Origin: Asterionella formosa
Lineage: Eukaryota
Direction: 5' to 3'
Length of the DNA: 36,847 nt
Assembly: GCA_002256025.1 (NCBI GenBank)
Contig: NKIB01015270.1
Span: forward strand, 1 to 36,847
The notes beneath the pieces were generated by a model. That model saw only the letters and a list, made by a program, of their open reading frames with translations. It was not told the origin of the DNA and searched no databases. The position numbers and the translations under genes were made by a program. Of this stretch, positions 6,095 to 36,847 are shown one piece after another. Positions within the stretch are counted from its first letter, which is position 1. Each line of letters starts with the position of its first letter.

Positions 6095-6417
6095 ACATCT
6101 ACTTATAATATAATACATGTTATTTGCAACTGTAAAAAATGTGCGTTGTTTGTGGAACACTAACTCAAATTTTGGGGCAATGGGTACGACGATTTGTGTT
6201 GTACCGTAGTACCGGGCACACTTGATAAAATAATTTTTTAATCATGTCAGAGCGCGCCCACTTTCGTGACTGCCTACCGGTAGTCCCTAGTGAGTCACCT
6301 GGTACTGTATGTATGACAAATTTATTATTATTTTATTTGTAAATGCTGCCTCGACGGAGCATAATCATTCATTCATCAATAATTGGTTTGCCCACACTTG
6401 ACTCACCAGTATCGACC

Positions 6418-11198: not shown

Positions 11199-11592
11199 AA
11201 AACTAAATACTACACACAATACCTAGACTGCAGTTTGACATACCGGTACCGGTACTCTACCTGGTCCTGCTTTTTTCACTTGATCTGTAGTAAAAACCGT
11301 CTTTTAGCTCAACTCCCACAGATGCCCTGGTACAACTACCAGCTACTGGAGTACCAGAACCAGGTAGTAGTACCCCAACCGTTATTACTATCCAAACAGT
11401 GCGAAGGACAAAAATAATATTCCTTACCGAAATCAGCCACCAATTTTTACATCACCGTACGATTCATATCCGGTATGCTGTGAGTACACCATTACTGCCC
11501 GTGCGTCCAGCTACTGGTACATGATACCCTACCGTAATTTGCATTGTAGTACCAAAATAGCTATTTATTAACAAAACGTTTGACTGATCACC

Positions 11593-15833: not shown

Positions 15834-16804
15834 GGCGAAGAGTTTCTGTTTCAAACAAGTGAGGGTACAAGTAAATAGGTATTCAACGATGAGTTAGCGC
15901 CCACTTCAAGCACAACCAGTTGAGTATTAGTCCTTGCAGGAGGATTTGATTATAATCGGCAGTCGTTTATTGTGCGGAGTTTTGTCGTCGGAACAATGAC
16001 TTGCTCTGCCTCGCATGTATGTAGGAGTACCAGTATCGTAGTGGCGATATGCATTTCGTTTTCCATCGAATTTCCAGACCATTCCTGATCACAAGTCACC
16101 ACAGCCGTCGGTATGATGCATACTCCAGTGTACATGTCTACATAGATCATTGCTGCATACGTACCACGTCGACACAAGACGTCGTATGATACTGCTGTAC
16201 AAACCGGTACCCGGTACCTGGTACTTCCTCATTTTCGAATACAGTATACAGTAGGTACGTGCTGTATACATTGCCATTGTTTTGTTTTATTTTATTTTAT
16301 ATTTTTACGCTCTACAGTAGTCTACCGGTATGCTTGGTGCTGGTCCAGCGATATGTAATACCGGTACCAGTACCTGGTACGGTACAAGGTACCGGCTGTT
16401 TTTGTGTAGGCAAAGCTTCTACTTACAGGTATCACCAGTCCTCGAATCTACTTCGACCCAATAACCGACTTGTTCGACTGCCTTTCCTGAATATATTTCC
16501 GTGCGTTGTGATGATAGTTTTTTGGCTTTTTTTGTTCTGCACCAACTAATCTTTAGGCTTGTAGTACATAAGTTGGTCTTTCGATTAGCTTCGGAGATTT
16601 CCTCCCTCTGGCTCTCCTTAGCTGCAGTACCAGGCGACGCCGTCTGCATATTTGGCAAATCTCCTTGTGGGATCATGTGTGAAGTGACACGTGCTTTCCA
16701 CCCTGCCATTGTCAATTGAGAAATGAATGAAAGGGTGTTGGTCTCTCGGTTTTCTGGGGGGCAAAGAATGTGGGTTTGGTGATCATTTTCTGACTCACAG
16801 ACTT

Positions 16805-18845
16805 GGTGATTGCTGAAGGCAATACACGCCCAAGGTGGTCTCTTGCCTGCGAGTATACATGTGTTCGAGGCTGGGTGGCGTGAGTACATTGACCGTACGA
16901 GTGGCGCTGGCCATCCCAGCCGAGTACACATGTATACGAGAAGGCAAGTAGCCGCCAAGAAGGGTATTGTTGAGGCAATTCCCGCTCTAGCTATTGTCAT
17001 GTCATTCGCTTACCTACTGCCCACAAAAAAGCAAAAATGTCAATTTTAGCTTACTATTGCCCATCATATAAAATATATTTCATATATTTCCTATCTTCAC
17101 CTCGAAAATTGCCAAAGGTCTGATATTGCCCATCATTAAAATATATTTTGGATATTTCATATGTTCGCATTTTGGCAAGACAACAGACGCCAATTGCTCC
17201 TCGGTTTTCTAGCCCTGGGATTGCCGAAATTGGCAAGGGGTCTACTTAAGGAAACCATTTTATATACTATTCAGACTTTAATAATTTATATCTAGAATTC
17301 ACCGCATTTTTGTTCATCTCCTGAAAAGTGGACTCCGGCAATTCACCTTTCACCATGCCAATCGTCGTCCATCATGACCGGGTTGAAGCGAAATCAGTTC
17401 CGCGATGACGCCAGTAGCGATTCTTTGCCTAACAGATGCGGTTGATTGTTGGATTGCTTGTCTTCTCGAGGCATTCATGTAGTCGCATCGTCCATTTTTC
17501 GTCGGACAAACAATGATATCGATACATCTGATGTTGGCGGCAAGTTTTTGCTCCGGTCATGTATGTAATGATGCTTAACGGATATTCTACCGGTACCGGC
17601 AGTCATCTAGTCTACATACGTATGTGGTACTAAAAACAACCATGGATGGTTTAAGCTATACTTAAACACTTAGCTACTTTGAACATGTTATAATATTATC
17701 TCTGTAGACTCGGTATTATTTTTACAAGACCTGAATGTTAAATTATATTCTTCACATACTATTCATTGATTTTACATACCGTATGGCCGATTTCGTCCTC
17801 ACAGATATACTTCTCACTCTATCTTGCCTGCCTTTGCTCTATTCGGGCTTGCAATAGGCAACGTTTGTCTTTCTTTGATCCCATAGTCTGCTGCTTGTTA
17901 TGCTAGTTGAAGCGGATCGGTGAGTACAACAGTGAAACACTGAATGTGGATTATAGATCATTTTTATCGACTGTCTGATTTGATTGCTTCCGTGGTTTCT
18001 TTTGATCGCTTCCATCGTTGTTTGTCGTTCCGCACTGTCGTTTTGTTTCGATTGTACATATCTACATAAGAACCAATGCATTTATCAATGACTACTCATT
18101 GAAGATTTGGTATTGTGCCGTTGTTGATTTGTATAGTCGTTGACAATGATGTCAATATTGCCGCCAAGCAATGCTTTTCCTGTACTAACGCGCTTTGCTA
18201 CATTTCTACTACAAGTTCATATCAGAGGCTACGTATATTCAGCTAGAGGGAGTCGATAGTGCTGAAGCAGCCTGGTGATCATACTCAATCAGAATGGATT
18301 GGAATGGAATGATGATCAGGGTTGTTTGGTGGGAGGAACGAGGACTGTGGGCAGAGGGAATGCAACTTGGTGTGTCAGGCTCCTACAGCGATGTGCATGG
18401 TTACAACAAGCAGATCGTCTACACTACATAACGACGCAGGTCAAGATTGGGTTCAGCTTTTTCCCTTCTTATTTCGGTCATTGATTGTGTGGTGATGGAA
18501 ATTCAATTGCTTTCGTAAGTACTACAATGTCACAATGCATACATCTCCATTGAAACTCTTATTTTTTACTTTATTTCCTTTGATGCTACTTATTACATCG
18601 CATTTCATACTTTGGTTGCTCCAAACATCATGTTCAATTTTCATTGATGTTGCATGTTACAATCATTCTTGTGTGTTTTATGCTTGTTGTACCATCTCCA
18701 TGCATATTACCGATATTCTGGTTGTCATGCTAAAATCGGCAATTTTATTGCCGAAAAATTCGATGTGCCCCATATTGCCCTTAAATAAAAATTACTTAAA
18801 AGGACCCGAATGGCAAGATGATAGCTGGAGCGGGAATTGCTGTTG
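16805..18845. repeat. Interspersed repeat, copy 1 (probable non-autonomous mobile element or large tandem unit), with ~600 bp of extra sequence at ~17170-17770
   Basis: Colinear, same-orientation matches to ~30880-32520. Examples are 'caatacacgcccaaggtggtctcttgcctgcgagtatacatg' vs 'caatacacatctgaggtggtctcatgcctgcaagtatacatg', and the shared blocks 'ttgcccatcatataaaatata', 'gttgacaatgatgtcaatat' and 'cgatgtgccc(c)atattgccctt'. Confidence 0.8.
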
Positions 18846-19261
18846 ATCCCTCCTCCCAAAATCATTTCTGTTGTTTCCATTCAGGATGAAAAATGTTGTC
18901 TTTGCTGATTAATTCAATTACATGACATATACTAAATTTATAAAAATAGTGTTGCTTAATTCTGTTTCTGCAGCATTACACACAGATACACATTTTGGAG
19001 CAACAACAAAAAGTGTTGCTGGAAGCAACATAGTACCTGGATATGGGTGATACGAAAAATTGGGCCAATCAACAGAATTCACCATTTTGTATCTATGTTG
19101 AGACTGGCCTAAGCAGCAGGCAGAAGTCAGTTGCTAAGGCCAGTGACAAGATTTCTTGTTATTACCACTGTCAAGAGTACTCTTTCCAAATTCCCCATTC
19201 ACTATACCAAAAGTCTGCACCAGTTTACAAATGTGCAGGTAGTGCTGAAACAAAAACTCTT

Positions 19262-22200
19262 CTATTTGCTGGTTAATGGTCGGACACCAGTCCAACTAGG
19301 GGGGCAAATTCCGTTGCGTTTTTCCATGTAGGCCACTAGAACCTTGCATGTACCATCGCCCAACTCGTTTCTTATTCGTACAACCTCATCATTGCTATGA
19401 TGTCGGTCAAAAATCCGCCCATCGATGTCGTTAGGGTTATAGTCGATGTATCCTTCTTCAAGCACTGTTGTAATCATTATTTCGTCTGCTTCCTGCAGAG
19501 CTATGATCGCTTCCTTCCAGTCGCCATGAAGGTACGCTTTGCTACCTTCCCTGAACTTTCTCTCAAAGTCTTCCGTGACATGCTGTCTCATGGCTCGGAG
19601 ATCTTGATCGCTTTCCCACACCAATGGAGTGTACGCTTCTGCGTCAAGATCGGATTGCTCCGCAGAACGCTCAAACAAAAAGAAATCAACGCCTATGTTC
19701 CTAGCATCATACGTAAAGATCCGTTGAGCGACGCTGGATCCCTTTACAAAGACTGTGTCTAAATGGCGCAATTTATTCCGGGCCGGAGGAGAAAGGAGTT
19801 CCTCGACTGCTTGGCTGAGAAGGATGGTGACTCCATATTGTTTGGCTGCACTCATCATGCGGGATGCCATATTCACATGAGGGGAGAGGTACGTAGCATC
19901 GATCTTGTATTCACTGCCTACCGCACCTTCGACGGCCCAGCCAGCATCCATACCAATAACAATGCTGACCGTATACGCACCGACACCAGCTCCAAGGCGG
20001 AAGTCCTTCTTCCAGTTTTGAAGATTTCGATCACGATGGATACCAGCAAAGGATTTCAGCAAACCCAAAAGGGCGCGGTCAGAAAATGACTGGATACCCG
20101 GGAGCGACGCAAGTTGTAAAGTATCATCTCCACCGCCTCTAGAGCCTTTAATAACATTCACACCTCTACTTCCGTGATTGATTCCACGACTCCGGCGTTT
20201 CATGGTGTTCTTCTTTGCATTTCTCTTCTCCTTCGACCCAGAAAACAATACTTCCGTAGCTCGAGCCTTCTTTTCGTGTACTTCAGTGAAGTCACCAATG
20301 CGAAAGACCATCAAGAAAGCAGCACCAAGATTCTTGTTGCATTGGCCGCTATCGCCTAGAGCCCAACGAAAGACTTCGTCATGCACAACTTTAGCAACAT
20401 CGTTGATCAAAATCATAACATCCCGGTCGAGAGCACGCAATTGCTCGCTGAAGCCATTGATTGCAACAAAGCCAAAGAGTGCATACACACGCTTTCCTGG
20501 AACAGTTGGATTGAAAACAACAGTCTTTCCATCTTGAGTCCTAGCGAGGTTGGAGGAAATGATCCCGGCGCCTGCAACACCCCAACACTTTCGAAGAAGA
20601 TCAGCAATTTTAGAAATGGCATTGATAAGCTGTTCCGTTTCGTAGTTACCGAGTTGCGCTTTATCACCATCCTTATCAGGATCACTTTCACTCCCTTCGC
20701 CGCCAACTTCGCCGTCTCTCTTTTGCCTCTTATTTGACCTTGCAGTTGACGAGAGTGGATTTTGAGCATAACGAACTACGATCTTGAGCATTCTCTGGAG
20801 CGGATGCAAAACGAGACGACCAGCATCGCCGCGAAGGACCGTCAAACCAGTCAAACTGAGCAAAAGGATGCAAAATAATAGAATGAATGATGAAATGTTC
20901 GTAAACATAACTGCCTGGTTCTGGTTAACAAGAACCTTCACACTGAATGTAGCATTGGTCACTTCTTGCGAGCCATTGAACCATGTTAACGTGGTGGACT
21001 TTGTGTATTCCGAGATAGCTCCGACTGGTATGTCAAGTAGATCAGCGAAGAAATTCGGGGTTGCATTCGAAGGTGCTGCATTCCAAATTGCGCAGGCACC
21101 CACAACGACATCTGTATATTTGTCACATGACGATATCACACCGTCGTCGCTTTGGAAGTTACAGCGAACCGGAAGTACCTGCGCCCAAAGAATATAGGCA
21201 CCCTCGGAATAGTAGGTACCCTCCGTTGCAGGTGACAAAACCACCGCTGCCGCAGCTAGCCATGACTCGAAAGAATCCTGAAGGAATGCGCAACTGGTAT
21301 CGCTATTGTTTGTCACTAATTCACTAGTCGCTTGAAGAAAGCCAACAAATTCTGGTGCACTATTGTTGACACCGCTAATTGTCGAAATCATTGGCAAAAC
21401 TACGACAATAATTAACCTGTCGGGTCATTAGAAATGGCGTAAAATGAAAAATCAATGCAATCACTTTCAATACTTACAGAAGCAAAAGGGCGCGATGCGA
21501 GTTCACAACCATTAGAGCAGTACCGATAGTTGCCGCCTTTTTCAGACCCCTGTCATTCTCATAACTTGATTCGGACTTTCTCTCCGAGTTATCCTCTTCT
21601 CCTTGATGTATGTCCCCGACCTGAGCCTTTCGTTTCCTCGAGAAGTGTCGAGAAGTATAATATGGCTCATTCGGGTCATCAGAGCGGAAAAATTTTGGAA
21701 AATTTCCATTTTGTACCCTGTCATCGCGAAAGGTGTTGTTGATCCACATCTGCTTCCAATGACGAACAAGTCCGAAAATTCGCAATGTCCGCAACCCAAG
21801 AGCAAAGCGACCGACTGCGGAGTCCCACCTAGTAGGTCCAAGGACAGCGGACATCGAAACATCAATGCCAGAAAAATGAGTACGTGCGCCACAGGTCCTT
21901 CCATGTAAACACACAAAATCGGGAATATATAGAGCCAAAGCCACGATCTCAAACATAACGTGAAATGCACTGATATAACGGGCGGTAGATGGAGCGTATG
22001 CCTTGTCGGAAGCAATTAGTTCAAAATAATTTGAAGGCCGGATCACCAACTCCATCAAAAGCTCAAGGGCAAGCACCGTCCAGATACATCTGAGGAGAAT
22101 AACCAGTGTGAGTTGTTGACAAGCCCTGAGAATTATTCACAAAATAATCAACTTACGCCCCAAGCAAAGCAACCTCATCAAAGGAAGTGGAAGGAAAGAA

Positions 22201-23699
22201 TGCCAAGGTCGCAGTCTCAAGGAACAAGTAAATGAAACTACACATTACCAACAAGTTAATTCCAGTGCAACGTAAACTGCATGAAAAGGGTGAATCTCCA
22301 AATAGAAGAGAGGATGCAAGTTCCTTCAACTCGCTTCGGAACTTTCGGTAAAAAGGGACTAACTTATTCTTGCGGAAACGGATTGGCCAAGAAATGAAAG
22401 CAACCAACCGCTCAAAGCTCATGCTTTCCTTGTTCGTCTTTTTAACGTCAGCCATTGACCAACTTGTTTCGCGCGCGGCCCGCAATGCTGATTCGATTCC
22501 TTCTGGTGATTTGCATTGTTCCATCCAGGCTACGGCAAAATGTCAGGGAAAGGTTAGGCGCCATTTGTCCAATTTAAACAATCTGTAACACCAATAAATA
22601 ACCCACCTGTATCTGCCCTCTGCAAAGTACCAGTATCTGCTCTTGCAACTGTATAATATTTTATATCTTCGTCAAAATGCACTTTCTGCACTGTTGCCAA
22701 CACATATACAAAAGGGCCTTGCTGTTCCTCAAAGTTTCCGCCTTGACCTCGCGGATAACCAAATTTATTCACTGGTTGCACAGTAAAAGCTTCTTGGGGA
22801 TCTACAGAATTGGTATGGTTCATAATATTCAAAAACACCAGAACTTTTTCGCCTACAGCAAATTGCAAATTTGATAGGTTTTTGCTACCTGCACCGACAC
22901 CAGCAGCAACGACAGCCGCTGCCGCTGCAACGTTTTCCCATTCAGAGTTAGATGTTTGTCCCAAGCTCGAAAGTGCCGCGTCAAAAGAATCAAAATTCTG
23001 GGAAGAACTCTTCGAATGCCGATTTGAAATGCTATGAGAGGTTCTTCGACTGGCTTTTCGGCCCATCCCTATTTTCATAATCCCCGAACTGGCAGCTGAA
23101 AAATGTTCATTGTCATCCATCGAGAAATTTCCAGTTACGACTGGCTTGATATTGACGGATTTCCGCCGCACTGAGTTTTGTCGACTCAATCTTGAGTGCC
23201 CAGATCCTTCGTCGTCTGATTCTGACGCAGAAACAGTACCTCGTCGCTTGGCCATCTGAAGTGAGGGGTCTGAAGCGAAGGAGCCAGATCCGGCGCTGTA
23301 CAAAGAATTGAAACTACGTCTGGAAGCTGAGGATCGCCTCCTAGTTGGACCCGAAAAGGAGCTTCTCTTGGTAGCTCCTGCCGTAAGACTGGGGGTTGAT
23401 TCTTCACTCAAACTGTCAAAGTGACTTGAAATGTTGTAGTCCTGCGAGTTGTGGGACATGTTCTCGCTGATTTCCTCACGCGAATTCGCCCACTGAAACC
23501 CTCTGGAAGCTTTCACTTGTTCGTATTCTTCGTCTCCGAAGCTAGCGGCAGAAACGTCGTCATCGTCTCGGCAAAAGAGGACCGGAGGGTAATATGCATG
23601 GTCCATTGAACGGTCTTCCATGTCCTCCTCTTCTTCCTCTGTTATGTGTTCCATCCTGTCGAGAAGAGCATCACCTCCTTCGTCGAATGGAGATGACAT
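19262..23699 (-). CDS. Voltage-sensor/ion-channel-like 6TM domain fused to a class III adenylyl cyclase-like domain (alveolate AC-alpha type), 1410 aa; probable pseudo-cyclase
   Basis: Exons 23699-22607, 22529-22157, 22089-21478 and 21416-19262. All three introns are GT-AG and frame-preserving, giving 4233 nt. Motifs are an S4-like 'GRFALGLRTLRIFGLVRHWK', 'GWAVEGAVGSEYKIDATYLSPHVNMASRM', a TPR-like tail and the terminal 'WTGVRPLTSK'. Confidence 0.9.
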
Positions 23700-23989
23700 G
23701 CTATAAATGATGGTCTCTGGGTGTTACGGTATGTGTTCCGGTAATAATACCTTAGTATGGACAACCTGCAAGAACGCGGCTGCAGTGGTAGTCGCAATGC
23801 ATGTCGGCGACACATATATTATGGAGTGTGCCTGGAGCAATAATATGAATGGTAGTACTGGTAAGGCATACCTACTCTGTTGAAATTTGTGGCGCTTCAT
23901 CCTAGCGCGCTCCAGTACTGCCCTGAATGACCGGTCAAGATCGTTCTCGCGCCGCTCGTTTGCAAATTATTCTGCTATCATACAAGATA

Positions 23990-24900
23990 CCCTGGTACCA
24001 GGTACTGTCTGCCGAAATTTCCATTTAGACATTCCTCAGACTACATCTAGTCTTCGGACACCTGTCGACATCAGCAGCCTAACAGACAAATTCTGACAAT
24101 ACCACTCCTCCTCTGGTCGAAACCAAGGAAGCCAAACCTACATACCCGTATACCGTACTGGTACCTGGTACCTGGTTCCGGTACCATGTACCTATTATTC
24201 ACAAGCACATTACCGGTACGGTAGCCTACCCTTTTTTTACCACCAGGGTACCGCCTGGTAAAATACCGGGTTACCATCCTTACTTAAAACAAGGGGAAAG
24301 TCTTATGTAGTACCAGTATACCGGATCGTATACCGGTATTCTACGACCCCATGCTCTGCAGATGCATATCGTATTTTATCAGTCTCTGTTTATAATACCA
24401 GGTATACCGGTAGTACATTTGGTACAAGGTACCGGTACCAGTGCCGGTGTCAGGCAGTATCTTCATGCCGACAGGGAAGGTCCGGTAAAACACGTTGTTA
24501 ACTTATTTTTTAAGAAAAGATTTAGCAAAATATCGCGATTACAGGACCTTCCACAGAGGTGTCCGGAGTTTACGAAATATGTACCTTGTTACCGGTAGTA
24601 CCGGACATTCCAGGGCAGTAGGTCTACTGGCACGCGTTACATGGGAAGAAGCGCCATTCACTAATTTCGACATACCGGTATACACCGGTAGCTCATAACG
24701 GTGCGTACATAAGTAGGAATGTGATAGCTTGGTGTGCCTTAGTCATCAACAACTGTACGAGGTTTTACCTGGCACCGGTACCAGTGCCTGGTCCCTTGCA
24801 TAGGTAAACCAGGTAGTACCTGGTACCAGGTACCAGGTATCCAACCATTCCTGCTCTCAATCACTAAAACATGAAACAACAACATCAGTACGGTACATTT
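23990..24900. repeat. Densest cluster of TA-flanked micro-motifs (TACCGGTA/TACCAGGTA/TACCTGGTA) in the divergent promoter region
   Basis: Many overlapping motifs, e.g. 'gtagtacctggtaccaggtaccaggta'. Similar clusters lie at ~3715-4075, ~7820-8050, ~11240-11550, ~16170-16420, ~27700-27905 and ~36410-36680. Confidence 0.85.
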
Positions 24901-25098
24901 ACATAGTGGGTAAAGCAAGACGAAAGTCTGCCATCACCATTCAGCAAGAATCACCCCGTCAGCATGTCAGCATCATCAGACAAGAACGTAAGGGAAGAAG
25001 CGCAGAGCCAAGAAAAGACTCATGGCGATAACGGTCTCAATGGTGGGGTCAATAGCCAAGTGCCCGTTCCGCCTACTGAGAAATCCACCGCACGAAAG
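24625..25098 (+). repeat. Duplicated promoter + 5' coding segment, copy A (paralogous to ~27750-28178)
   Basis: 'gtgggtaaagcaagac(g/c)aaagtctgccatca...catcagacaagaacgtaa...ccaagtgcccgttccgcctactgag' is present in both copies. Confidence 0.9.
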
Positions 25099-26559
25099 AA
25101 AAGAAAACGCGCCAATGCCCCTTCCAAACTACAACCAGGCGACCAAGGCTATTTGACACCAACACAACTTCGGAATGCTCGTAAACGGCGTGCCAACAAA
25201 AAGACTACGACCATCACTACTAATAGTGACCCATCTGGAAAGTACTTAGGTAATCCGTTGGCAACTCCCATTTGTCAAACTGCCAAGGAATACTTCCGGG
25301 CCATCAACTCTAGTGGTACTTTTGACATTCATATCGGGCCGACCACAGAATGGAGAACTGTAGCCAAACTTGCCGTTCGAGGCAATCCACTTTCCATTGG
25401 GCTCTTTGCGCCAAAATCACATGAACTTGTTGCCGTTCCGGACTGCACTGCACATCATCAGGGCATCAATTCAACTGTCGCTCATCTTGAACAATGTTGT
25501 CATCGAGCAGGGGTCACTGCTTTTGATGAGACAACAGGCAAAGGAAATATTCGATTCGCTGCTATGAATGTGGAACGTGCGACTGGGAAAGTTCAACTCA
25601 CGATTGTTTGGAACAGTGAGCCGTATAACGTTGACAATGATTTCAGCAACAATGCTGATGCGCATGATGATGGGAAGAATCAATTAGAACGACTTGTACA
25701 AATGCTATGTCCAAAAACATCCACCTCCACTGCTACACCAAAACAACGACGAAGGGGGACCAAGAAGAAGCCATTATTGGAACAAACAGATGTGATTCAT
25801 GGTCAAGAAAACAAGGTGGAACTGCATTCACTTTGGATTCATTTCAACTCATCGTGGAAGCATTCCAACGCTATCTTCGCGATTGATGCTGGACCCAACA
25901 GTTGGAAACAAATATTTGGACCGCCTGCCATTGTAGAGCACCTGACCTTGGTGGGGCAACCCAGACCTGTTCCACTGCATTTTCCCCCAAATGTATTTCG
26001 ACAAGCAAATCTTGACGCATTTACCAAAATTGTTGCCAAAATTAGAACAAAAATATCAGAGTTCACTAATAACAACACCAACAAGATGACGCAAGAAACA
26101 TTCACATGTGTTGAACTTTATGGTGGAGTCGGTACCATTGGATTGAATGTGGCAGATCTGGTGACCACCTTGACTTCTTCAGACGAGAATCCATTCAATA
26201 AGGATTGTTTTGAGAAATCAGCAACTGAGGCAGGATTAATGTCCAGAGTTGGCTATGAATCCAAGAATGCAACAGATATGGTACTTGGAAAAAGAAATGG
26301 AGCTTTTCAACAGGCGAACATCATTCTGGTAGATCCACCTCGAAAGGGATTAGAGGAACCAGTATTGAACTCACTATGTTCATCGTCAATAAATGCGAAA
26401 TTGCTGGTATATGTAAGTTGTGGATTTGAAGCATTCAAGAGAGATTGTGGAGCCCTATTGGACTCTGGCAAATGGAGTTTAGACCAAGCAGAAGGTCATT
26501 TGCTCTTTCCAGGAAGTGATGCTATTGAAACCTTGGCCTTTTTTGTTGCTAAAAAATAG
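24964..26559 (+). CDS. TrmA/RlmD-family RNA (uracil-5)-methyltransferase, 531 aa
   Basis: Motifs 'FRQAN', SAM-binding 'ELYGGVGTIGL', 'VDPPRKG', catalytic Cys 'YVSC' and catalytic Glu 'FPGSDAIETLA'. Confidence 0.92.
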   Translation: MSASSDKNVREEAQSQEKTHGDNGLNGGVNSQVPVPPTEKSTARKKRKRANAPSKLQPGDQGYLTPTQLRNARKRRANKKTTTITTNSDPSGKYLGNPLATPICQTAKEYFRAINSSGTFDIHIGPTTEWRTVAKLAVRGNPLSIGLFAPKSHELVAVPDCTAHHQGINSTVAHLEQCCHRAGVTAFDETTGKGNIRFAAMNVERATGKVQLTIVWNSEPYNVDNDFSNNADAHDDGKNQLERLVQMLCPKTSTSTATPKQRRRGTKKKPLLEQTDVIHGQENKVELHSLWIHFNSSWKHSNAIFAIDAGPNSWKQIFGPPAIVEHLTLVGQPRPVPLHFPPNVFRQANLDAFTKIVAKIRTKISEFTNNNTNKMTQETFTCVELYGGVGTIGLNVADLVTTLTSSDENPFNKDCFEKSATEAGLMSRVGYESKNATDMVLGKRNGAFQQANIILVDPPRKGLEEPVLNSLCSSSINAKLLVYVSCGFEAFKRDCGALLDSGKWSLDQAEGHLLFPGSDAIETLAFFVAKK

Positions 26560-27749
26560 CTAAATTTGAATTGCAAGAGATGTCGCTCATGGTTTGTTCA
26601 TATACTTGTGGGTAAAAAATGTTATTGTAAATAGATCATGTCAACAAGAAGTGCTTTGTTTTACACAGCAATTGTCAACAATGTACATTTGCCACATTTG
26701 CAATGGTTGCACATCCAACCAAGTCAAATGGTGAATTGTTCACATAAATTTTGGTTGAAATTTTCTTCTCCCTTCTCATGGAGCAATATTTAATACTGCA
26801 CACGTGCTTTCCAGGAATGATGATGGCATTGTCATGAATGTGGAGAATTGACTCTATTAGATACCAACATTATTACAACTCATATTGCCTGAAGCTACAA
26901 ACATGTATAATAAAAATGGTGTCATGATGTGCTTGTATGCTGTCGATTTTTACAGGAGGTGTCTGAGAGCATTCAGATTGACGGAGATCAATAAAATCAA
27001 TATACTGGAGGACAGTTTCATGGATATTGTGGTCAAGCTTTTTGCAAGAGCAAACAGAGGGAAAATGATCGACAATGGGACTGATGCTTCAATGCCAATG
27101 CCATCAATCTACTTACTCCCAAGAGGTGCTTGATTGGGAAAAGGCAGCAATGAAGTTCAAGCGCCAGTGGGTCGCAAGGATGCCTATCAAAAGAGGAAAT
27201 TGGATTGTCTCTAGTTTTACGACATTTTCACAAAGACCTCTTGCTCAGGCACATTATGGATGCTGTTCTAAACCGCCTGCGGCTTTTGATAATCCCCTAT
27301 GGAACCAGTCATCACTGTAGCTAGAGAGTTTGCTGCTTTCGATCCTGCAATGTTCACCTTTGACACGAGCATGTTCAAAGATCTCACCAACTTCCACAAA
27401 CACCACCATCATAATGTACTGCTTGAAGCAAATACCTCATTGCATCTGGTATGGCAACATATTACACAGATGCAGCTTTCAACACCACCTACCTTGAATT
27501 GGTGAAACTTCTGGTAATGTCCTCCTTGCATTTATGGCCTTTGGATAGTGCGATGGCAGACTACATGACCATAGCCGAACCCATGATCAGGACCAATGAA
27601 ACCAGAGTCTCCGAGGCAAGAGGGATCAATCAGACTAATCTGGCAACCAGGTAGCATGCTCGTTAGTACATGTTTTTTTGCTAGATGACGAGGTCCACAT
27701 TCCTACCGGTACTACCGGTACCGTTATGCCGGTGTACATAGAAGCTACA

Positions 27750-28178
27750 GTACTGGAGCGCGCTAGAAAGAAGCGCCATGCACGCAATCATATGTTACCG
27801 GTGCGTACATGTTGGAGAGTGATGGCTTGTGCCTTCTTCATCAAGTGTACGAGGAACCAGGGTACCCTAGTACCATGCAAACCTGGTACTGGTACCAGGT
27901 ACCCCTGTGACATCCCTGCTCTCTATCTCTCACATGAAGCCAGATCAGTTCGTTTACATGGTGGGTAAAGCAAGACCAAAGTCTGCCATCATCATTCAGC
28001 AAAAATCACCCTGTCAGCAGCATGTCGGCAGCATCAGACAAGAACGTAACGGAAGAAGCGCAGAGCCAGCTAGTAAAGATTGAAGAAAAGACTCATGGCG
28101 ACGACGATCTCGTTGGTAATGTCGATGGCCAAGTGCCCGTTCCGCCTACTGAGGAATCCACCGCCATTCCACGAAAGC
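27750..28178 (+). repeat. Duplicated promoter + 5' coding segment, copy B (paralogous to ~24625-25098)
   Basis: Same blocks as copy A. Encodes [16 protein letters not shown]...[12 protein letters not shown] versus MSASSDKNVREEAQSQ...[12 protein letters not shown] in copy A. Confidence 0.9.
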
Positions 28179-30259
28179 GCTCAATTCAGAACGACCCAGT
28201 CGTTGTTAATCCCGTCATTACCCCAACCACGATGGCGCTGACGCCAGGAACAGTGTATGGTTTGCCGGAGGGAGTGTTCATTCCAGCGACGATCCATGCT
28301 GATTTACTGCAAGGAAACTTGCTCACGTCCCTTAAAGATCTTCCCACACAACTCATCAAGGACGCATTGGCAGAGTACGATGATGCCATGACTCAAAAAT
28401 CTGGAGAAATTCGCAAGCATGGAGCATATTTATTTGGTGTCATTAAACGATACAAAGCAGTCGCAGAACGTGGGACTGATGGCCTTTGCATGGGACCGGA
28501 ATTGACGCCGTTGATTAACAGTAAATTGAACAAAATGCTCGAGGACGGATTTTGCACACAAGATGAAATGAATGACAAAGTGAAAAATAAAATTAAAATG
28601 TAAGACACTTCCGGCATGAGACCACCATGATGGTCAGATCGGTTCTGGATGCCTATTGGTAATGTCGTTTAACATTTTGTTTGGCATGTTACACAGGTTG
28701 AGCGAAAAAGATGCAATTTTTGCCATTGACGAGATTTCGGGTGTGAGCCGACCTCAAATTCGGGACTTTGGGTCTTATTTCATGGGGTATGTCTGTTGTG
28801 CTGACATATGCAGGGGAAATTGCTCGGAAGATGTGACTTTTGCTCACGTAACTGTTGATACATTTTTATAATTCAGGATTTTAAATCGTTATATGCGCGG
28901 TGATTGTGGACCAAGAGACAGCACGAGACAGAATTTTGGTCGTGAACGAGGCAGCAGTAATGGAAAATTTGTGAGTAATGCTTTGGGATATTTGTGTGAT
29001 TGGCTGCCAGATGTTGTTGCGATTTCGCCACTAATGACGTGATGAACGAAACTCAGGATCACAGAGGAGGTGAACGCAGCCATGGAAATCGCAGCAAGGG
29101 TCGTTCTTCAGACAAAAAAAATCATGATCACCACGATAGCCGAGGTCGTTCTCGTTATGGCAACAGTGATTCGTTTCATCGTGAAGACAGGGAGCGATCC
29201 AGAGACCGCCATGATGGCCAACGGGGTCCTCTTGGAAATCCACAGAATTTCCAGCATCAGTATGATCCTCGTCGTGCTTCTCAAATCGTTGGAGGAGTTC
29301 CGCCACCTCCTCCGTCACATCCTCCTTATGGGCAGCAGCAGCAGCAGCAGATGCAATTCAATCCTTATCAGCCACAGCCGCAGCAACAGCAACCACCTTC
29401 TTTTGGAATGCCGAATGGTGTCGTTCTTCCTTATCAGCAACAGCAACCACTTCATCAGTCTCCTCACCTCGCATTCGTACCTGACCAGCAGCAGCATCAA
29501 CCCCTTTACATGAATCAACCACATATGGCTCATCAACAACCATTGCCCCAGTTCATGATGGGACAGCAGGGGCCAACGATGACTACTTCTCAAATCATAC
29601 CACACAATAGCTGGCAACCGTCGTCTCAGCAACAGTCATCGGCACCTCCCGATATCATCGGTATTGCTGACAAGGCAGCACAAGCTTTGGCTGCTGCAAT
29701 GGGTCACCTCTCGTCTCAACCCCAACAATCTCCACTATTGTATGGCACGCCACAGCAGGGAATGCAGCAGCAGCAGCAGCAACAACATTATGGAGGGCCT
29801 ATATATCAACAAAACATGCAGCAACAGCAACCTAATTTGGAAATCAATGCCATGCAAGGAATGATGCAACCACAGCAACCACTTCAAATAAGGTCCAAGT
29901 CGTATAGCACCAACCAGCAACAAGTTATCCCACCCACAAAACGTCGTCACATAGTTGCTCAAATCCACGAATTATCCCTCAGCGTGCAACAAGCAGTTCA
30001 CAACTTGCATGCGACAGGCGCAATCGATGGGGCGCTGGATGAGGGCATTTTGGGCATGATTAAGGATCTTCCAGAACCTCTTGCCCTTCAGTCCTTGCAA
30101 AAGTTTTCTGCCATGGATCATTCCAGCATGAGAAGCAAAACGGTGAGTAAGATTTCCTTGGTTACCCTCATATTTCATTTCTTTCCCTCATAATTTTTTG
30201 CTCAGGCCTATCTCGCTGGTTTGCTACGGACCGAACTTTCAAAGATTCATAGACGCTGA
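28022..30259 (+). CDS. Protein with three hnRNP Q/SYNCRIP acidic-domain-like repeats, an R/D/S-rich segment and a Q/P-rich low-complexity region, 633 aa
   Basis: Exons 28022-28599, 28697-28786, 28877-28970, 29057-30142 and 30206-30259 (all GT-AG, 1902 nt, frame intact). The repeated motif reads '[15 protein letters not shown]', '[15 protein letters not shown]' and '[15 protein letters not shown]'. Confidence 0.8.
29332..29830 (+). repeat. CAG/CAA polyglutamine microsatellites within coding exon
   Basis: (CAG)n runs at ~29333-29350 and ~29765-29785, within a Q-rich exon. Confidence 0.85.
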
Positions 30260-30879
30260 GTGCCCATTGTGCCATGATGTATTTTCTTGTTTCCGTTTGT
30301 TTCTACTTGTGTTTTCTCATGGTACTTGCTGACAATCTTGGCCACGAGAAGGCCTTCCTCTCTTCTCTAACATTGAAACCTGTGATAAGCATGCGCTTTC
30401 TCGCCCTCTCGCTGTCTTTTGTGCATGCTTATGGATGGCTCAATCCAAGTGCTCTGAGCGAGTATTCTTGGAATGCATCATTCGGGCTGAATGTATCATC
30501 ACCTCCTTCATTTGTAACATCAAAATCATGGGCCCTTCATGATGCAGGACCAAACCCGACTTCCAGTAGACTACCTGATACCCAGTACTGCTTTTTGGAC
30601 AATGTTATAGACCTTCCTTCCACAATTTGATATTACCTGTACTACATACCATGTGGTTAATGTAGCATGTAAGTATTTTCCATAAAAGATGATTGAGTCT
30701 CTAAAAAATAACAGCTACTCTATCAGGTACTATTTTATTGTAATGGCAACTATGCTACATACATGTACCATTGATCACTCTGCACCTGTCAAAAACTTCA
30801 CCAACTTTGATGACAATTTTACTCCTATCCTTGTTTGACGGTCCCTGCTCAAACCTAAAATTAGACTGCTGAAAAAGCC

Positions 30880-32520
30880 ACTGTGCCCCTATATACTGCC
30901 CCTAAATAAAAATTACTTAAATGCCCATAGTTCTCAATGAAAAGCAAAATGAGGTTGGGGATTGCTTAATACAATACACATCTGAGGTGGTCTCATGCCT
31001 GCAAGTATACATGAGCTTGAGGCAGGGTGACCCAAGAAGGTTAACCATGATACAATGGCATCCCTGGCATTGCAAGGAGAAGGTCACCCTACAAGTGCCA
31101 TCAAGCAGAAATGTACATATTTATGTGAGAGGGCATGTAATTTCGAGAAGGTTATTGTTGAGACAATTAACAAACTAACTAGTATCGTCGTGCCGTTCAC
31201 TTAGTACCTACTGCCCACTCATTGAGCGGAAATGTCATTTCAGTTTGCATCATTCTTACTTATCATATAAAATATACTCTAAACTATTGTTGTGCCATTC
31301 ACTTACCAGCTGCCAACTCATTGAGTGTAAATGTCATTTTTAGTTTGCTATCATCATTGCCCATCATATAAAATATATTCTGAAAATTTCCCAATGGGAT
31401 CAGTATTACCCATAATTATAATATATTTTGTGTGTTTCATTTGTTAGCCTGATTTTATCCTCACAATTATAAATCTCACTTGTTCATGTCTGCCATTGCT
31501 CAATCTTGGCTTCCATCAGGGACCTTTTGACTTTTAATTGGTCCTATCATTTTCTGCTTGTTATGATAGGTATGGCGGATCAGTGAGTATAGCACTGAAG
31601 TAAAGAATGTGGTATGCATAGCTATGCTATTTGTCCAATTTGCAATTTGATTGCTTATATTTGTTGCTGTTTTGATTACTTCCATCATTTTTTTCGTTCC
31701 ATAGTAGTACTGTTGCTTTGGTTTGTTTGTATGCATCTATTTATATAAGGGTCGATTTAGACTATTTATTAGCTAGTGCCTACTCTTTGAATATTTATTG
31801 TTGCTGAACATATTTGCTGATTTGTAGAGTTGTTGACAATGATGTCAATATCACCACCCAAGCAATGCTATTCTTACACTAACTTTGGTTTGCTATCTTT
31901 TCACTCAGAGTTTGTAACACAAATACATTTCAACATTTATCAATAATTGCTGATTCAATCGAGTGAGTCGATAGATGAGAAGCCTGGCAGTCATTTGTAG
32001 AATGAAATGATCAGGGTTGTTTGATTTGAACTCCTGTGAACTGCAGGACTTCTGCTAGCTAGTATGTGAAATATTCTGCCATCAGGCTACAGCTCACCTA
32101 CTCAATAGTGCAATATTAATCTCAATTGGTTAGAGGTTATTTCTTTGTTTTCTATGTTATTTCATCCTCCAATTGTGTGATGGAAAGTCAATGCTGGTGC
32201 CTGTCTAAGTTCTACAATGTCCTCAGATGCTGGTATTATTTGCCTCATTTCTAGCCCAAAACAGTTTTTCTTTCTCATGTAATGCTTCTCATTATATTGC
32301 ATATCATTCTCTGGTTGCTCCAAAAATCATTTTCAATTTTTATTGAGATTTAATGTTACAATCAGTCTCATGTTGTTGATGCTTGTTTTTCTGTCATCAT
32401 TGCGGACTCATTTATACACAATAGTATTTTGCTTTCTGCCATAATTCCGGTAATCATATGAACGTTGGTTATTCTTGGCTGTCGATGTGCCCATATTGCC
32501 CTTTTATAAATTTACTTACA
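30880..32520. repeat. Interspersed repeat, copy 2; CpG-depleted, with an internal ~100-bp tandem duplication (~31185-31385)
   Basis: Colinear with ~16805-18845. The motif 'gtgccc..atat(t/a)..gccc.t..ataaa..ttactta' occurs at both ends (~30883-30921 and ~32487-32520). Confidence 0.8.
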
Positions 32521-32721
32521 GCCTAAAAATTGCTGAGGAGTATACCGGTACTGGGGTATAGGTTGTACTCCTAAAATGCAACTCTCATCTCATCAGCACA
32601 TAACTATAGTATAATTAATACCCATCACTCCAACGACTTTCAGAACCCAAGATTATGCAATGCATACATCATTAAGCTCTTTCTTACAGATACAACAACG
32701 ACATCAAAACGACAAGGAATA

Positions 32722-33389
32722 ATGACTGCTATCCACTCCTTTCTCGTGAGCCTCTTATTACTCTTTGTGGGGGTGTCATGCTCGGCCGAGACTTTGACGA
32801 CCGGTGAAAATGTGGGGGAATTCGTGACGAGGAACATCAACAACAACGAGGTACGTTGCGAGAACAGGTGTGTGTGTGTGTTGTGTTCGAAAGTCATGTC
32901 GAGAGCGCCTCGCGCTGACCGGAAACAACCATTGGTCTTGTGCCCTTTTCGTCAGGTCATGGTCTTTGCGAAGAGCTATTGTCCTCATTGCCAGGCAACT
33001 AGAGCACTGCTAAAGACAATGCATTCGAGCATTGACGTTGAAATCTCCATTTTGGACCTGGACAAGATGGAACACGAAGACGGGGCCCTGGTGCAAATGG
33101 AACTCCTGCAACGTACTGGTCAACGCACTGTTCCGAACGGTAAGTGCCAAAACTCTTGACGGCTGTGTAAGGCGCTGTGTATGGTATCCCCTCTCCCATT
33201 CGATCTCTTATATCTTTTGGACATTCACGTATACTAGTGTTTATTGGAGGGCGCCATATGGGCGGAAACTCCGATTTGCAAATGCTAGCTGCCAATGGAC
33301 AACTTCAAAATCAATTGAACGATTTGTTGGCGCACAGATCCGATCACGAGAGGTCAGCACGTCAAAACGACCATCAAGCAATGTTGTAA
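32722..33389 (+). CDS. GRX: Dithiol class I glutaredoxin (CPHC) with an N-terminal signal peptide, 154 aa
   Basis: Exons 32722-32850, 32956-33139 and 33238-33389 (GT-AG introns). Motifs 'VMVFAKSYCPHC' and '[22 protein letters not shown]', with a hydrophobic N-terminus ending VSCSA. Confidence 0.92.
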
Positions 33390-33515
33390 TTCAGGACACT
33401 GCCTTGCAAATCCTATATCAGGGGCGTTGGATTAAATAGAGTAGCCACCTACACTTCGTCCTTCTAATATCCAAAACTTGTTAAACTAAGAGTTGTTCCA
33501 TGGCTCCCGTATACG

Positions 33516-34487
33516 TTAAGACAGTGTTAATTTATTTGTCTCAATGTCCTGTATGTCGTCACTTGGATGCCAAGTGACTGGAAAATCGTCATCGGAAAGT
33601 TCCACAAGCACTACATCTGTTACCCCTTCAACATGCCGTCTCCATAATTTTGATTTTGTGGCTTCTGCTGTGAAAGTGACCTCTCCCGGACAAAAATGCA
33701 ACCCAAGTCCCCGACGTGGTCTTGTTTTGCTGGTATTGGGTCCTGATCCATGCCATGTTCGGCCATGATGAATCGAAATCCCTCCTGCCCTGAGTCCTGC
33801 CATGGAAACAAAGTCTAAATCCACAATTCCTTCCCGCTCTGCTGCTGACTTGAGCAAGGCCTTGCCATTGGTGCCGAAGAATTGGTTGGAGGTTCCTACT
33901 CGGCCATCTCCCCACTTGTGAGAGCCCTTCACATACTCTAGTGGTCCCAGTTCTTCGTCCATATCGTCCAATGCCAGCCATACTGTCACAATGTCTGGTG
34001 GATTAAACATAAAGTATGGTGAATCTCTGTGAAAGACAAGGGCCGATGCTCCAGGTGGTTTTGCCCAAACTTGATCTTGGGCTAATCTCACCCCATGCTT
34101 CCATCCTGCCAGTGTGGCAACTAGTTTCCCCAAGGCTGGATCTGTGGCAATGGTGCGAAAGAGTGAATCACATTTATGTACATTAATCACCTGAAGTACC
34201 TTCACATGATGTAGATTGCCAGTGAAGCCAAGTGGTCCCTTGTACATGATGGTATCCTTGATTATTTTGGGTATCTTGTCTGGTGGCTTTGCTCGATCGT
34301 ACTGACCCCGAAGAACATGTTCCAGACGTTCTCGTAAGGAATCCACAACATTGATAGCATAGTACTGCGGGATACTAATAAATCCGTCCTTGTCAAATTG
34401 TAATTGCTTTTGTTCATCTACCATCATGGCGTGACCACGATTTGTGAGCGCGTCAACTGTTGGTGTACTATATGTGGCAGTTTCCAT
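33516..34487 (-). CDS. Phytanoyl-CoA dioxygenase (PhyH)-family Fe(II)/2-oxoglutarate dioxygenase, 323 aa
   Basis: 'QFDKDGFI', 'KPPG...FHRDSPY' (HxD), 'VTVWLALDD...GPLEYVKGSH' and 'WHGSGPNTS..PRR'. Confidence 0.92.
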   Translation of the reverse strand: METATYSTPTVDALTNRGHAMMVDEQKQLQFDKDGFISIPQYYAINVVDSLRERLEHVLRGQYDRAKPPDKIPKIIKDTIMYKGPLGFTGNLHHVKVLQVINVHKCDSLFRTIATDPALGKLVATLAGWKHGVRLAQDQVWAKPPGASALVFHRDSPYFMFNPPDIVTVWLALDDMDEELGPLEYVKGSHKWGDGRVGTSNQFFGTNGKALLKSAAEREGIVDLDFVSMAGLRAGGISIHHGRTWHGSGPNTSKTRPRRGLGLHFCPGEVTFTAEATKSKLWRRHVEGVTDVVLVELSDDDFPVTWHPSDDIQDIETNKLTLS

Positions 34488-34970
34488 TCTTCTTTTTTTG
34501 GGGATAATGTTATGTACGTATCATATTCGAATTGCTCTTTCTCACTCACTCTCTTTTGAAAAGTTTATGCAGGTTATCGAATGATGAATTGATATGTAAA
34601 TAGATTAAAGGATGATTAATTAAGTAGAAGTAGTGATGAAGCAATCGAACAATGATATCACATGAGTTTATTCACGACAGCACAATGAAGGCTGTGCATT
34701 TCGATCACTGTTGCTTCATCGTTGTATCAGCCTGTTTATCTTACGACCGGTTCTGTATGAGCGATATCATTGTTCTGTTTGATTGGTCAGGTAGTCTATG
34801 GTCAGGTAGTCTATTGTGCATTACATATACCTATATTAACGGTAGTCTGTCTGTAAGTCCGCCGCTCGTCGATACATTACAATCACCACCACCACTGGCA
34901 CAATGGAAACTGTTACCAAGAACTGAACATTGGATGTAGTCTTCAGGCAATTGGATTACCCCATCATGCA

Positions 34971-35658
34971 ATGGGCTGACCATGGCTGGGATGGAGAACC
35001 ATAGCCAAACTTGCCGTTTTCGGTGATCCACTTTCCATTGGACACTTTGTGTGCCGAAATCTCACAAACTCATTGGTGTTCCGGACTGTACTGCTGCATG
35101 ACATCATCAGAGCAATTTAATTACAATGTCGCTCATCTCAAACAATGTTGTCATCAAGCAGGGTTCCCTGCCTTTCATGAGACAACAGGCAAAGGAAACA
35201 GGTGTTGAATCTTATGCTGGAAGTTGTACCATTGGATTGAATGTGGCTGGCAGATCTGGTGACCACCTTGACTTTCTTTAGACGAGAATCCATTCAATAA
35301 GGATTGTTTTGAGAAATCAGCAACTGAGGCAGGATTAATGTCCAGAGTTGGCTATGAATCCAAGAATGCAACAGATATGGTACTTGGAAATAGTAATAGA
35401 GCTTTTCAACAGGCGAACATCATTCTGGTAGATCCACCTCGAAAGGGATTAGAGGAACCAGAATTGAACTCACTATGTTCATCGTCAATAAACGCGAAAT
35501 TGCTGGTATATGTAAGTTGTGGATTTGAAGCATTCAAGAGAGATTGTGGAGCCCTATTGGACTCTGGCAAATTGAGTTTAAACCAAGCAGAAGGTCATTT
35601 GCTCTTTCCAGGAAGTGATGCTATTGAAACCTTGGCCTTTTTTGTTGCTAAAAAATAA
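34971..35658 (+). pseudogene. Partial, internally deleted pseudogene copy of the 24964-26559 RNA methyltransferase
   Basis: ~34971-35197 matches ~25333-25547 with indels, then jumps to the equivalent of ~26104. 35281-35658 matches 26182-26559 with 8 substitutions by my count. The N-terminus is missing and the SAM motif is frameshifted. Confidence 0.9.
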
Positions 35659-36080
35659 CTAAATTTGAATTGTAAGAGATGTCGCTCATGGTTTGTTCAT
35701 ATACTTGTGGGTAAAAAATGTTATTGTAAATAGATCATGTCAACAAGAAGTGCTTTGTTTTATACAGCAATTGTCAACAATGTACATTTGCCACATTTGC
35801 AATGGTTGCTTGCATATCCAACCAAGTCAAATGGTGAATTGTTCACATAAATTTTGGTTGAAATTTTCTCCTCCCTTCTCATGGAGCAATATTTAATACT
35901 GCACACATGCTTTCCAGGAATGATGATGGCATTGTCATGAATTTTGAGAATTGACTCAATTAGATACCAACATTATTACAACTCATATTGCCTGAAGCTA
36001 CAAACATGTATAAGAAAAATGGTGTCAGGATGTGCTTGTAAGCTGTTGATTTTTACATGAGTTGCCCGAGAGCATCTGAA
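35659..36080 (+). repeat. Duplicated 3' flank of the methyltransferase (copy of ~26560-26975)
   Basis: Near-identical non-coding sequence 'ctaaatttgaattg...gctacaaacatgtataa...gagagcat'. Confidence 0.92.
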
Positions 36081-36359
36081 TGGAAACAGACAGTATTTAT
36101 ATAGTAGTAGAATGATATGCAAACCAAAGGCATGAAATTGATCTTGACAGGTTATCACTTTTAACAAAATCAAAGGTGTGAATAGGGACCCCACTCTGGA
36201 AACTCCTGGTACCACCTAAAAACTGAGAGTCATCCTTATGGGTGCTTTATACTGAGAGTCTTCCTTAAACAGGGTAATCACCACACATTTTTGAATCAAT
36301 ATTGTAAATATGATGTTTTTTTCAGACAAATCCTTATGAGGCAAAAACGATGACATGAG

Positions 36360-36530
36360 AAACTTTCATATGATCTCAAGAAATATTGACTCCACCCAAG
36401 GTGTAATCATGTACCGGTAAATAATCAGACCTAATAGTCCGGTACTAGAGAACCTGGTACAGGTAAACTTTCATATGATCTCAAGAAATATTGACTTCAC
36501 TCAAGGTGTAATCATGTACACAATCAGACC
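36360..36530. repeat. Direct repeat of ~66-72 bp (36360-36431 and 36465-36530)
   Basis: 'aaactttcatatgatctcaagaaatattgact(c/t)cac(c/t)caaggtgtaatcatgta...aatcagacc' occurs twice. Copy 1 has an extra CCGGTA. Confidence 0.92.
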
Positions 36531-36847
36531 AGTTGTACCGGTACCGGTACCAGGGTGGTACATGCAAAAAATTCAACCCCCAGTGCAACCTTTTAAGACC
36601 GTAGTGAAAGCTAGTGTACTAGCAGTCAACTAGCACTGTGTACAAAGGTAAACTACAAAAAACCCTGGTACCGGTATCAAAAGGCATTACCAAATTCATG
36701 AAACAACGTTTCGACTTCAATATCGCTCAACAGTGCAGCATAACCAGTTTGAGGCGCTTGCAAGTTGCAAACAAGTGCCACAACTGGGAGTTGATATTCT
36801 TTGGAATTCAAGCCTAATGAACAACCACATCGAATCGCAAAATGTGC

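Follow-up and report, generated by a model that had tools for sequence, protein, structure and literature searches.

Stowaway-type MITEs, which are non-autonomous Tc1/mariner derivatives, target and duplicate TA, are found close to genes and attain high copy numbers in intergenic DNA. Grainyhead-type sites (AACCGGTT) are palindromic and have an ACCGGT core, and we know of no Grainyhead-type factor of this site in diatoms. For the Tc1/mariner elements themselves, the excerpted text of one account states that end joining leaves the first or last 2–4 element bases between duplicated TAs, and gives TACAGTA and TACTGTA, i.e. TAC(A/T)GTA, as the canonical footprints of Sleeping Beauty (PMC6943129). 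Here, we describe a family of TA-flanked palindromes, TACC(N0–1)GGTA, in a contig of the diatom Asterionella formosa, of which the whole 36,847-base stretch was analysed (the window). The family is real, striking and lineage-specific. Its best explanation, unproven and in our estimate a little short of an even chance, is that the units are scars or end remnants of a TA-targeting cut-and-paste element of the Tc1/mariner/pogo (IS630-like) kind.

Results

Genes and repeats of the window

The window is gene-dense, with a GC content of 0.39–0.47 and long, unbroken ORFs. Genes with named products encode an EamA transporter, a GFO/IDH/MocA oxidoreductase, DnaJ (minus strand), a cyclase-domain protein, PhyH, a glutaredoxin and Rpb5. 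The nearest named homologue of the oxidoreductase is from the diatom Fragilaria crotonensis (73% identity), and the next best named relatives all belong to diatoms (Nitzschia, Mayamaea, Fragilariopsis, Pseudo-nitzschia, Cylindrotheca and Epithemia). Among the sequencing runs listed as containing the window, which come from 13 studies, 20 of 24 are labelled as algae, freshwater or lake-water metagenome. These matches and labels place the host among freshwater pennate diatoms with kinship to Fragilaria. The gene for the RNA polymerase subunit Rpb5 (11584–12325) lies in two frames, with the N-terminal domain at 11584–11856 and the C-terminal domain at 11879–12325, an arrangement pointing to a short intron or a change of frame around 11860. 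The genes at 24964–26559, 28022–30630 and 34991–36075 form a paralogous family that matches no Pfam family; one of its members is a recent partial duplicate (35198–36075 against 26104–26972, 95% identical) that spans the 3′ coding end and the 3′ flank.

Two further repeats were seen. The first is a repeat family with two diverged copies, 16803–18840 and 30846–32518, which are ~63–80% alike and whose depth in the four sequencing runs compared below is ~1,000 times that of single-copy DNA (~200,000 against ~165 in run X2). The first copy carries 34-base inverted repeats at 16975–17008 and 18807–18840; as the likeness of the two copies runs past them, they were not taken as true ends. An ORF inside this high-copy repeat (16419–17009, minus strand, 196 residues) has a single relative and no family. 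An imperfect 34-base palindrome pair, 82% complementary and 39 bases apart, marks the repeat's edge at 16842–16948, and a stretch resembling it lies near 30990–31130 in the second copy. The second repeat is a 31-base element (TGGCGCTTC...CTAGCGCGCTCCAGTACTG) found in two promoter regions, at 23890–23920 and 27748–27778, in inverted orientation and 94% complementary. The surrounding bin, 23518–24184, has ~130 times single-copy depth, reaching 67,000 at 24045, and therefore contains a short high-copy element.

A palindrome family flanked by TA

The motif strings quoted in the preliminary description of this DNA are all present where it placed them, and the most frequent, TACCGGTA, occurs 26 times in the window, against a mean of 0.17 and a maximum of 1 in 100 dinucleotide-preserving shuffles. 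The TACC(N0–1)GGTA family comprises 46 core sites in 25 clusters, 26 of them with a half-site spacing of 0 and 20 with a spacing of 1. When all TA-X-TA words were compared, the greatest excesses were those of TA-CCAGG-TA (12 against 0.08 expected, 147-fold), TA-CCGG-TA (26 against 0.19, 140-fold) and TA-CCTGG-TA (7 against 0.08, 82-fold), accompanied by TA-CCAG-TA (6 against 0.37, 16-fold), TA-CTGG-TA (5 against 0.37, 13-fold), TA-CGG-TA (6 against 0.82, 7-fold) and TA-CCG-TA (5 against 0.85, 6-fold). No other palindromic 8-mer in the window is comparably enriched. A loose definition yields 68 sites of the form TA-X-TA, and the recognisable sites together occupy 523 bases, or 2.9% of the non-coding DNA in the window. 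Short forms such as TAGTA and TAGGTA were not counted, their enrichment not exceeding that of many other TA-X-TA words. Neither TACCATGGTA (0.03 expected) nor TACCATA (2.07 expected) occurs in the window.

The centre base of the nine-mers is A in 12 cases, T in 7, C in 1 and G in none; A or T in 19 of 20 gives P = 4 × 10−4 against a non-coding GC content of 0.41. Outside the flanking TA, the adjoining base is C in 47 of 106 flanks, and GTAC (199 against 90 expected), GTATAC (23 against 5) and GTAGTAC (12 against 0.9) are all in excess. From the GTAC-type excess and the C-rich outer flanks, the preferred context looks like G-TA-C.

Position relative to genes

Not one of the 46 core sites falls within the coding spans (19,051 coding bases; P = 3 × 10−15 if sites were uniform), and only 2 of the 68 loose sites do. 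Most sites have a start codon no more than a few hundred bases downstream; for loose sites with an assignable gene, the modal distance is 100–150 bases upstream of the ATG (9 sites), followed by 50–100 bases (5 sites). The main clusters are listed in Table 1. The short intergenic stretches before the genes at 8127 and 11584 hold ~10 sites per kb. Sites are absent from the convergent 3′–3′ spacer 33160–33515, from 3′ flanks such as 26560–27700 and 35659–36400, from the PhyH promoter (spacer 34488–34990) and from the stretch before the EamA gene. In the promoters of the paralogous genes at 24964 and 28022, which are 74% alike (24696–25091 and 27796–28164), a chain of units stands at the same relative place with different unit content, the two chains differing by GTA, by C and by one extra CCAGGTA in one copy.

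Table 1. Positions of site clusters, insertion comparisons, strain contig pieces and the inverted-end candidate in the window
Feature	Position	Strand	Remarks
Cluster flanked by the EamA gene and the gene at 4533	2952–4031	.	12 loose sites
tRNA-like element, degenerate	6023–6095	−	CCGGTA (6078–6083, + strand) splits A-box-like D-loop
Cluster upstream of gene at 8127	7826–8050	.	Includes TA CCAGG TA CCGG TA CCGG TA, 7986–8006
Sites upstream of Rpb5 gene	11241–11536	.	Includes TA CCGG TA CCGG TA, 11241–11254
Cluster upstream of DnaJ gene (minus)	16028–16384	.	Includes TA CCGG TA CCAG TA CCTGG TA CGG TA, 16359–16384
Divergent promoter region	23700–24963	.	Densest: 19 loose sites, 15 per kb; holds chain 24817–24839
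Contig piece, run X2	Overlaps 24035–25045		14 gap letters, 1 substitution, 1003 bases covered
Contig piece, run X6	Overlaps 24035–25045		14 gap letters, 1 substitution, 776 bases covered
Contig piece, run X15	Overlaps 24035–25045		6 gap letters, 2 substitutions, 384 bases covered
Contig piece, run X7	Overlaps 24035–25045		12 gap letters, 17 substitutions, 1127 bases covered
TACGGTA, promoter of gene at 24964	24889–24895	+	Insertion relative to paralogous promoter ambiguous
Cluster, promoter of gene at 28022 (paralogous to 24964)	27704–27901	.	
TTAGTACC, GTA at TA in one repeat copy	31199–31206	+	Two further copies without GTA
Duplication copy 1 (~105-base tandem duplication)	36360–36445	+	Extra CCGGTA; TACCGGTA at 36412–36419
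Duplication copy 2	36465–36544	+	catgTAcacaatc, without the 6 bases
Chain TA CCGG TA CCGG TA, tail of copy 2	36536–36549	.	Tails of the two copies not alignable
131-base stretch bounded by TA	36544–36674		Weak MITE candidate, between 36542 and the single TACCGGTA at 36669–36676

A positional bias towards promoters of this kind is a property of cis-regulatory palindromes, and the promoter-proximal position, which the preliminary description did not mention, means that the sites may have a regulatory role. On this account the family would be a selected cis-regulatory or core-promoter palindrome (ACCGGT and ACCWGGT, with GGTACC in chains) bound by a putative dimeric lineage factor, with the insertions described below merely the route by which sites arise. 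The wholly non-coding location of the core sites, their commonest distance from the ATG, the site-free 3′ flanks, the matching place of the chains in the paralogous promoters and the lack of a second strongly enriched palindrome in the window all speak for it. We nevertheless consider it unlikely as the primary explanation. Selection on binding does not predict that perfect sites are born by exact insertion at TA, spacings of 0 and 1 are both common, and forms one base shorter are also enriched 6–7-fold. Decayed copies, with a bias towards CpG transitions, equal the perfect ones in number, the densest promoter is a hot spot of strain indels, and the PhyH and EamA promoters do without any site. 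Finally, literature listings and abstracts gave no diatom factor with this site, the one paper listed being on Phytophthora.

Units arise by insertion at TA

The units had been read in the preliminary description as insertions of X plus TA at an existing TA, on the basis of four internal comparisons. Short inserts between two TA copies, as left in an excision footprint, are found at the 68 loose sites and in paralogue comparisons, and the comparisons at 36412 and 31199 bear out the insertion itself. One case lies within one copy of a repeat: in TTCACTTA-GTA-CCTACTGCC at 31199, GTA is missing from two further copies, a tandem sister (31285) and one at 17002, so the change is a derived 3-base insertion, TA to TAGTA. 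In the tandem duplication that includes 36412, the two copies are ~85% alike and differ by one 6-base indel at catgTA, as had been claimed. Its length is exact; its placement is ambiguous by one base, with both placements requiring 1–2 adjacent substitutions, and the event is not polarised by any outgroup.

The other two comparisons fared less well. The tRNA-like element has a 7-pair acceptor stem, a T arm, a short anticodon arm and an A-box-like string, TAGCTTA/GTTGG, which presumably matches the tRNA A-box consensus. The string is contiguous only when CCGGTA is removed, and it is because of this consensus that an insertion can be read at 6078–6083; the tRNA identity itself is weak, with an extra TCG in the B box (T loop), an Rfam match to tRNA-Sec below the gathering score (14.5 bits, E = 4.4) and no ARAGORN call with CCGGTA either kept or removed. 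The oxidoreductase gene begins ~250 bases downstream of the element, which may represent either a decayed tRNA gene (pseudogene) or the head portion of a repeat derived from a tRNA. For the promoter string TACGGTA upstream of the gene at 24964, an ATCAGT block does align with the paralogous promoter when a 5-base gap is opened, but identity is 11/33 with the gap and 11/38 without it, leaving the proposed insertion ambiguous. In contrast to these loci, the 95% identical duplicate of the paralogue family is motif-free, and its indels are tandem slips only (TGGC, TTGC and one T).

Chains are mixed and their units decay

That the motifs form chains, as first proposed, is confirmed, for example by the three-unit chain TACCTGGTACCAGGTACCAGGTA at 24817–24839. 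Most core chains (32 of 38) are single units standing in unique context, 4 are double and 2 triple; with shorter units counted, there are 10 chains of more than one unit, containing 15 adjacent pairs. Identical neighbours make up 4 of these 15 pairs, against 3.2 by random draw (P of 4 or more = 0.41). Neighbouring units are no more alike than random draws, which argues against slippage.

Slippage would make the chains microsatellites, (CCGGTA)n and (CCWGGTA)n, later broken by point mutation. The period of 6 or 7 in the chains, 10 of which exceed one unit, is what it predicts, the net length differences between strains in the dense promoter include 6 and 12 bases, and bacterial arrays of the same heptamer (see below) indicate that such arrays can arise without any scar-forming process. 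Against this, the units are mostly single and in unique context, and where neighbours differ they do so at the centre or in length, which would not be favoured by point decay of copies. Neither the insertion at 31199 nor that at 36412 repeats the adjoining bases in tandem, and ordinary tandem slips are what the motif-free duplicate displays. The chains do not follow the pattern of a microsatellite, in which like units stand in tandem and new ones copy their neighbour, and we give slippage very little probability.

There are 32 one-mismatch variants of TACCGGTA where 6.3 are expected, a number close to that of perfect copies; 11 of the 32 are CpG transitions, and the non-coding CpG observed/expected ratio is 0.67. 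This excess, with its CpG bias, implies that sites decay, which we count in favour of the units being transposon scars, and they probably do so in the manner of unconstrained, methylated DNA. A first reading of the CCAG and CTGG units as 3+1 footprints was dropped, as CpG transitions of CCGG fit equally well; these units may be decay products of CCGG and not separate footprints.

The preliminary description had also proposed that each insertion creates a new TA target, so that chains grow by themselves. In simulations, 68 insertions into all 1,298 TAs gave only 3.3 chain links, compared with the 15 observed, but a pool of 200–300 preferred TAs gave 12–17 links, matching the observation. Chaining is thereby reproduced for a small target pool, though not for TAs at large, which makes the proposed self-chaining quantitatively possible; such a pool fits either the G-TA-C preference or a limit to open promoter DNA.

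Strain differences and dispersal in the genome

Contigs of four runs (X2, X6, X7 and X15) were placed on 16848–36847 for strain comparison. Uncovered parts, and the many joints that link one motif chain to another, reflect cross-matching of repeats and were excluded from the evidence. Single-copy bins have a depth of ~161–177 in X2, compared with 21,699 at 23518–24184, 8,266 at 36191–36847 and ~200,000 at 16848–18848, bins that contain chains and repeats. At the chains at 24816, 24839 and 27903, 26–58 contigs per run diverge from the chain into unrelated sequence (agreement 0.36–0.40); the chains are therefore dispersed genome-wide. No consensus for a shared element end next to the chains was found in these run-offs.

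Gap letters between the strain contigs and the window are concentrated in the densest promoter region: of the 72 in the 32 listed pieces, 46 lie within the four pieces overlapping 24035–25045 (Table 1). On balance, three of these pieces are shorter, by 12, 12 and 6 bases, and one is longer by 2. The 12 indels listed individually, out of 108, all lie in high-depth repeats, and those of 24035–25045 are given by size alone. Indel turnover in the densest promoter is fast, with sizes compatible with whole units. Pieces over 27014–28320 and 27734–29200 have no gap letters despite the motif cluster there.

Search for a source element

In agreement with the preliminary description, no transposase was found in the window: Pfam detected no transposase or DDE domain in any of the 75 ORFs scanned (two sets, of 15 and 60) from these 36.8 kb. 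The search of the window for an element flanked by TA and having the matching ends was likewise negative, the 11 TA-bounded candidates with inverted ends, like the other inverted repeats examined, being motif-built or unrelated palindromes. The 131-base stretch in Table 1 has 13-base inverted ends, CCGGTACCAGGGT, that are themselves made of motif units, and it has no second copy in the window.

These results bear on a reading in which no transposon takes part: where promoter chromatin is open, TA or GTAC sites would suffer recurrent staggered breaks, whose fill-in would duplicate TA and which would be rejoined with short templated or hairpin palindromic filler from neighbouring copies, so that the motif seeds its own spread. 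Besides the lack of a transposon in the window, it would account for TA duplicated around variable short filler (including GTATAC, with zero filler, and GTAGTAC, both in excess as given above), for tight promoter-proximal clustering and for units that are perfect palindromes with a centre of 0–1 base. Local templating, however, predicts seeds that differ from locus to locus, and one family dominates the window and, judging by the loose contig ends, the genome; other palindromes are not enriched. To our knowledge, moreover, no enzyme adds CC(A) to DNA ends in repair, which we also count against it. Break repair of this kind is, in our judgement, improbable.

The motif in other genomes and in the literature

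A metagenome scan with the protein of 24964–26559 returned two loci only, with 30–36% protein identity and a GC content of 0.38. In their 16.6 kb, there are 0 motif sites and no comparable TA-X-TA word, and we count this absence from two loci of a distant relative in favour of transposon scars. The 14-mer TACCGGTACCGGTA was rejected as a specific probe because at least 120 stretches in unrelated viral contigs contain it; a three-unit heptamer chain was not found in the viral contigs.

In prokaryote genome contigs, TACCWGGTACCWGGTACC occurs at 103 loci or more, with 107 arrays of 2–7 units in the 103 loci. Diatom contamination was considered and rejected as their source, as these are bacterial heptamer arrays, at whose loci TACCGGTA occurs no more often than chance predicts (17 in 1.03 Mb, compared with 26 in the 36.8 kb of the window). 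The bacterial MAG contigs (L123–L225, labelled Chitinophaga, Acidimicrobiia, Gemmatimonadaceae and others) carry the CCWGGTA heptamer arrays in intergenic DNA, often on several contigs of one MAG, and in L166 (9996–10060 and 16607–16900) they stand beside GGGTTTC and CGGACTA heptamer arrays.

Word searches of the literature for the motif strings gave primers and unrelated papers. In listings and abstracts, neither this family of motifs nor chains of footprints are described for diatoms, and there was nothing relevant on diatom transposon footprints, mariner-like inverted repeats, TA-duplicating MITEs or palindromic promoter motifs.

Discussion

The units are real, TA-flanked and born by insertion; their core sites are non-coding, they are mixed within chains, and they lie in a region rich in strain indels. 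We infer a transposon as their source, together with the sequence of its ends. Such an element would have ends 5′-CC(A/G)G...C(T/C)GG-3′ and would duplicate TA upon insertion; its loss would then leave two TAs with 4–5 terminal bases in between. Loss could proceed by transposase excision followed by end joining of near-complementary overhangs, or by a deletion that joins the near-palindromic junctions TACCNGGT and ACCNGGTA, which, given palindromic ends, would be direct repeats of almost identical sequence; the data do not tell the two routes apart. A mismatch of the ends at the central base would give the A or T at that position. The scars would create new TAs in a G-TA-C context, apparently a preferred target, so that chains build up, and would subsequently decay, partly by CpG transitions.

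The preliminary description had proposed both the transposon and ends of the form CC(A/G)...(T/C)GG. For the transposon, the TA-flanked insertions, the A/T centre and the independence of the units within chains are as expected, although the window contains neither an element nor a transposase. For the ends, the set of units fits their imprecise rejoining, but TACCATGGTA and TACCATA, the forms expected of CCA...TGG ends with 3-base overhangs, are missing. Other observations also count against transposon scars. The 5-base remnant exceeds the 2–4 bases quoted for Tc1/mariner elements in the excerpted source, the sites are concentrated upstream of start codons, and some motif clusters (27014–28320 and 27734–29200) are free of strain indels. 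A chain kept at one place in two promoters that are 74% alike could reflect selection. The explanations weighed here are not mutually exclusive, since scars can be co-opted; whatever weight is left beyond transposon scars, regulatory selection, break repair and slippage falls to something else.

In a broader reading, to which we give a limited though appreciable probability, promoter-proximal DNA across the diatom genome would be receiving one palindrome family from an insertion process that is still running and reinforces itself, and the chains would have become part of promoter architecture. The agent could be a very active TA-targeting element whose scars recreate its preferred GGTACC-like target, or a transposon-independent repair reaction at GTAC. 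If so, a mutational mechanism, and not selected point mutations, would build a large share of the regulatory sequence of this lineage. If the units are transposon scars, excision footprints would be a major writer of diatom intergenic and promoter sequence (~3% of non-coding bases), the process would still be active, given the differences between strains, and the birth of promoters by transposition would be directly observable in natural populations. If, on the other hand, no matching element exists, the family would suggest either a novel break-repair reaction acting on TA/GTAC or a promoter element peculiar to this lineage.

Among known systems, the diatom units resemble the Sleeping Beauty footprints, as the excerpted source gives them, in having a few near-palindromic bases with an A/T centre between two TAs, and the Tc1/mariner footprints of the same source in having shorter variants from imprecise joining. 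They differ from Sleeping Beauty, as quoted there, in a remnant of 4–5 bases (CCGG, CCWGG) instead of 3 and in a donor element that is not known. Their extreme density, ~2.9% of non-coding bases, also sets them apart from Tc1/mariner footprints, as do their promoter-proximal position and their chains, for which we found no like description in the literature. With hexa- and heptanucleotide microsatellites they share the head-to-tail arrangement and the period of 6–7, the heptamer being identical in the bacterial MAG contigs; unlike the bacterial (CCWGGTA)n arrays, they are mainly single, with heterogeneous neighbours, and TACCGGTA is far above chance among them, compared with chance level in the bacterial loci. 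Like Stowaway MITEs, the units are TA-targeted, near genes and numerous in intergenic DNA, but they have no internal sequence, and the sole inverted-end candidate (Table 1) is built from the motif itself. Finally, in being palindromic, with a CCGG centre, and located in promoters, they recall Grainyhead-type sites, from which they are distinguished by T/A in place of A/T flanks, by variable spacing and by their birth through insertion.
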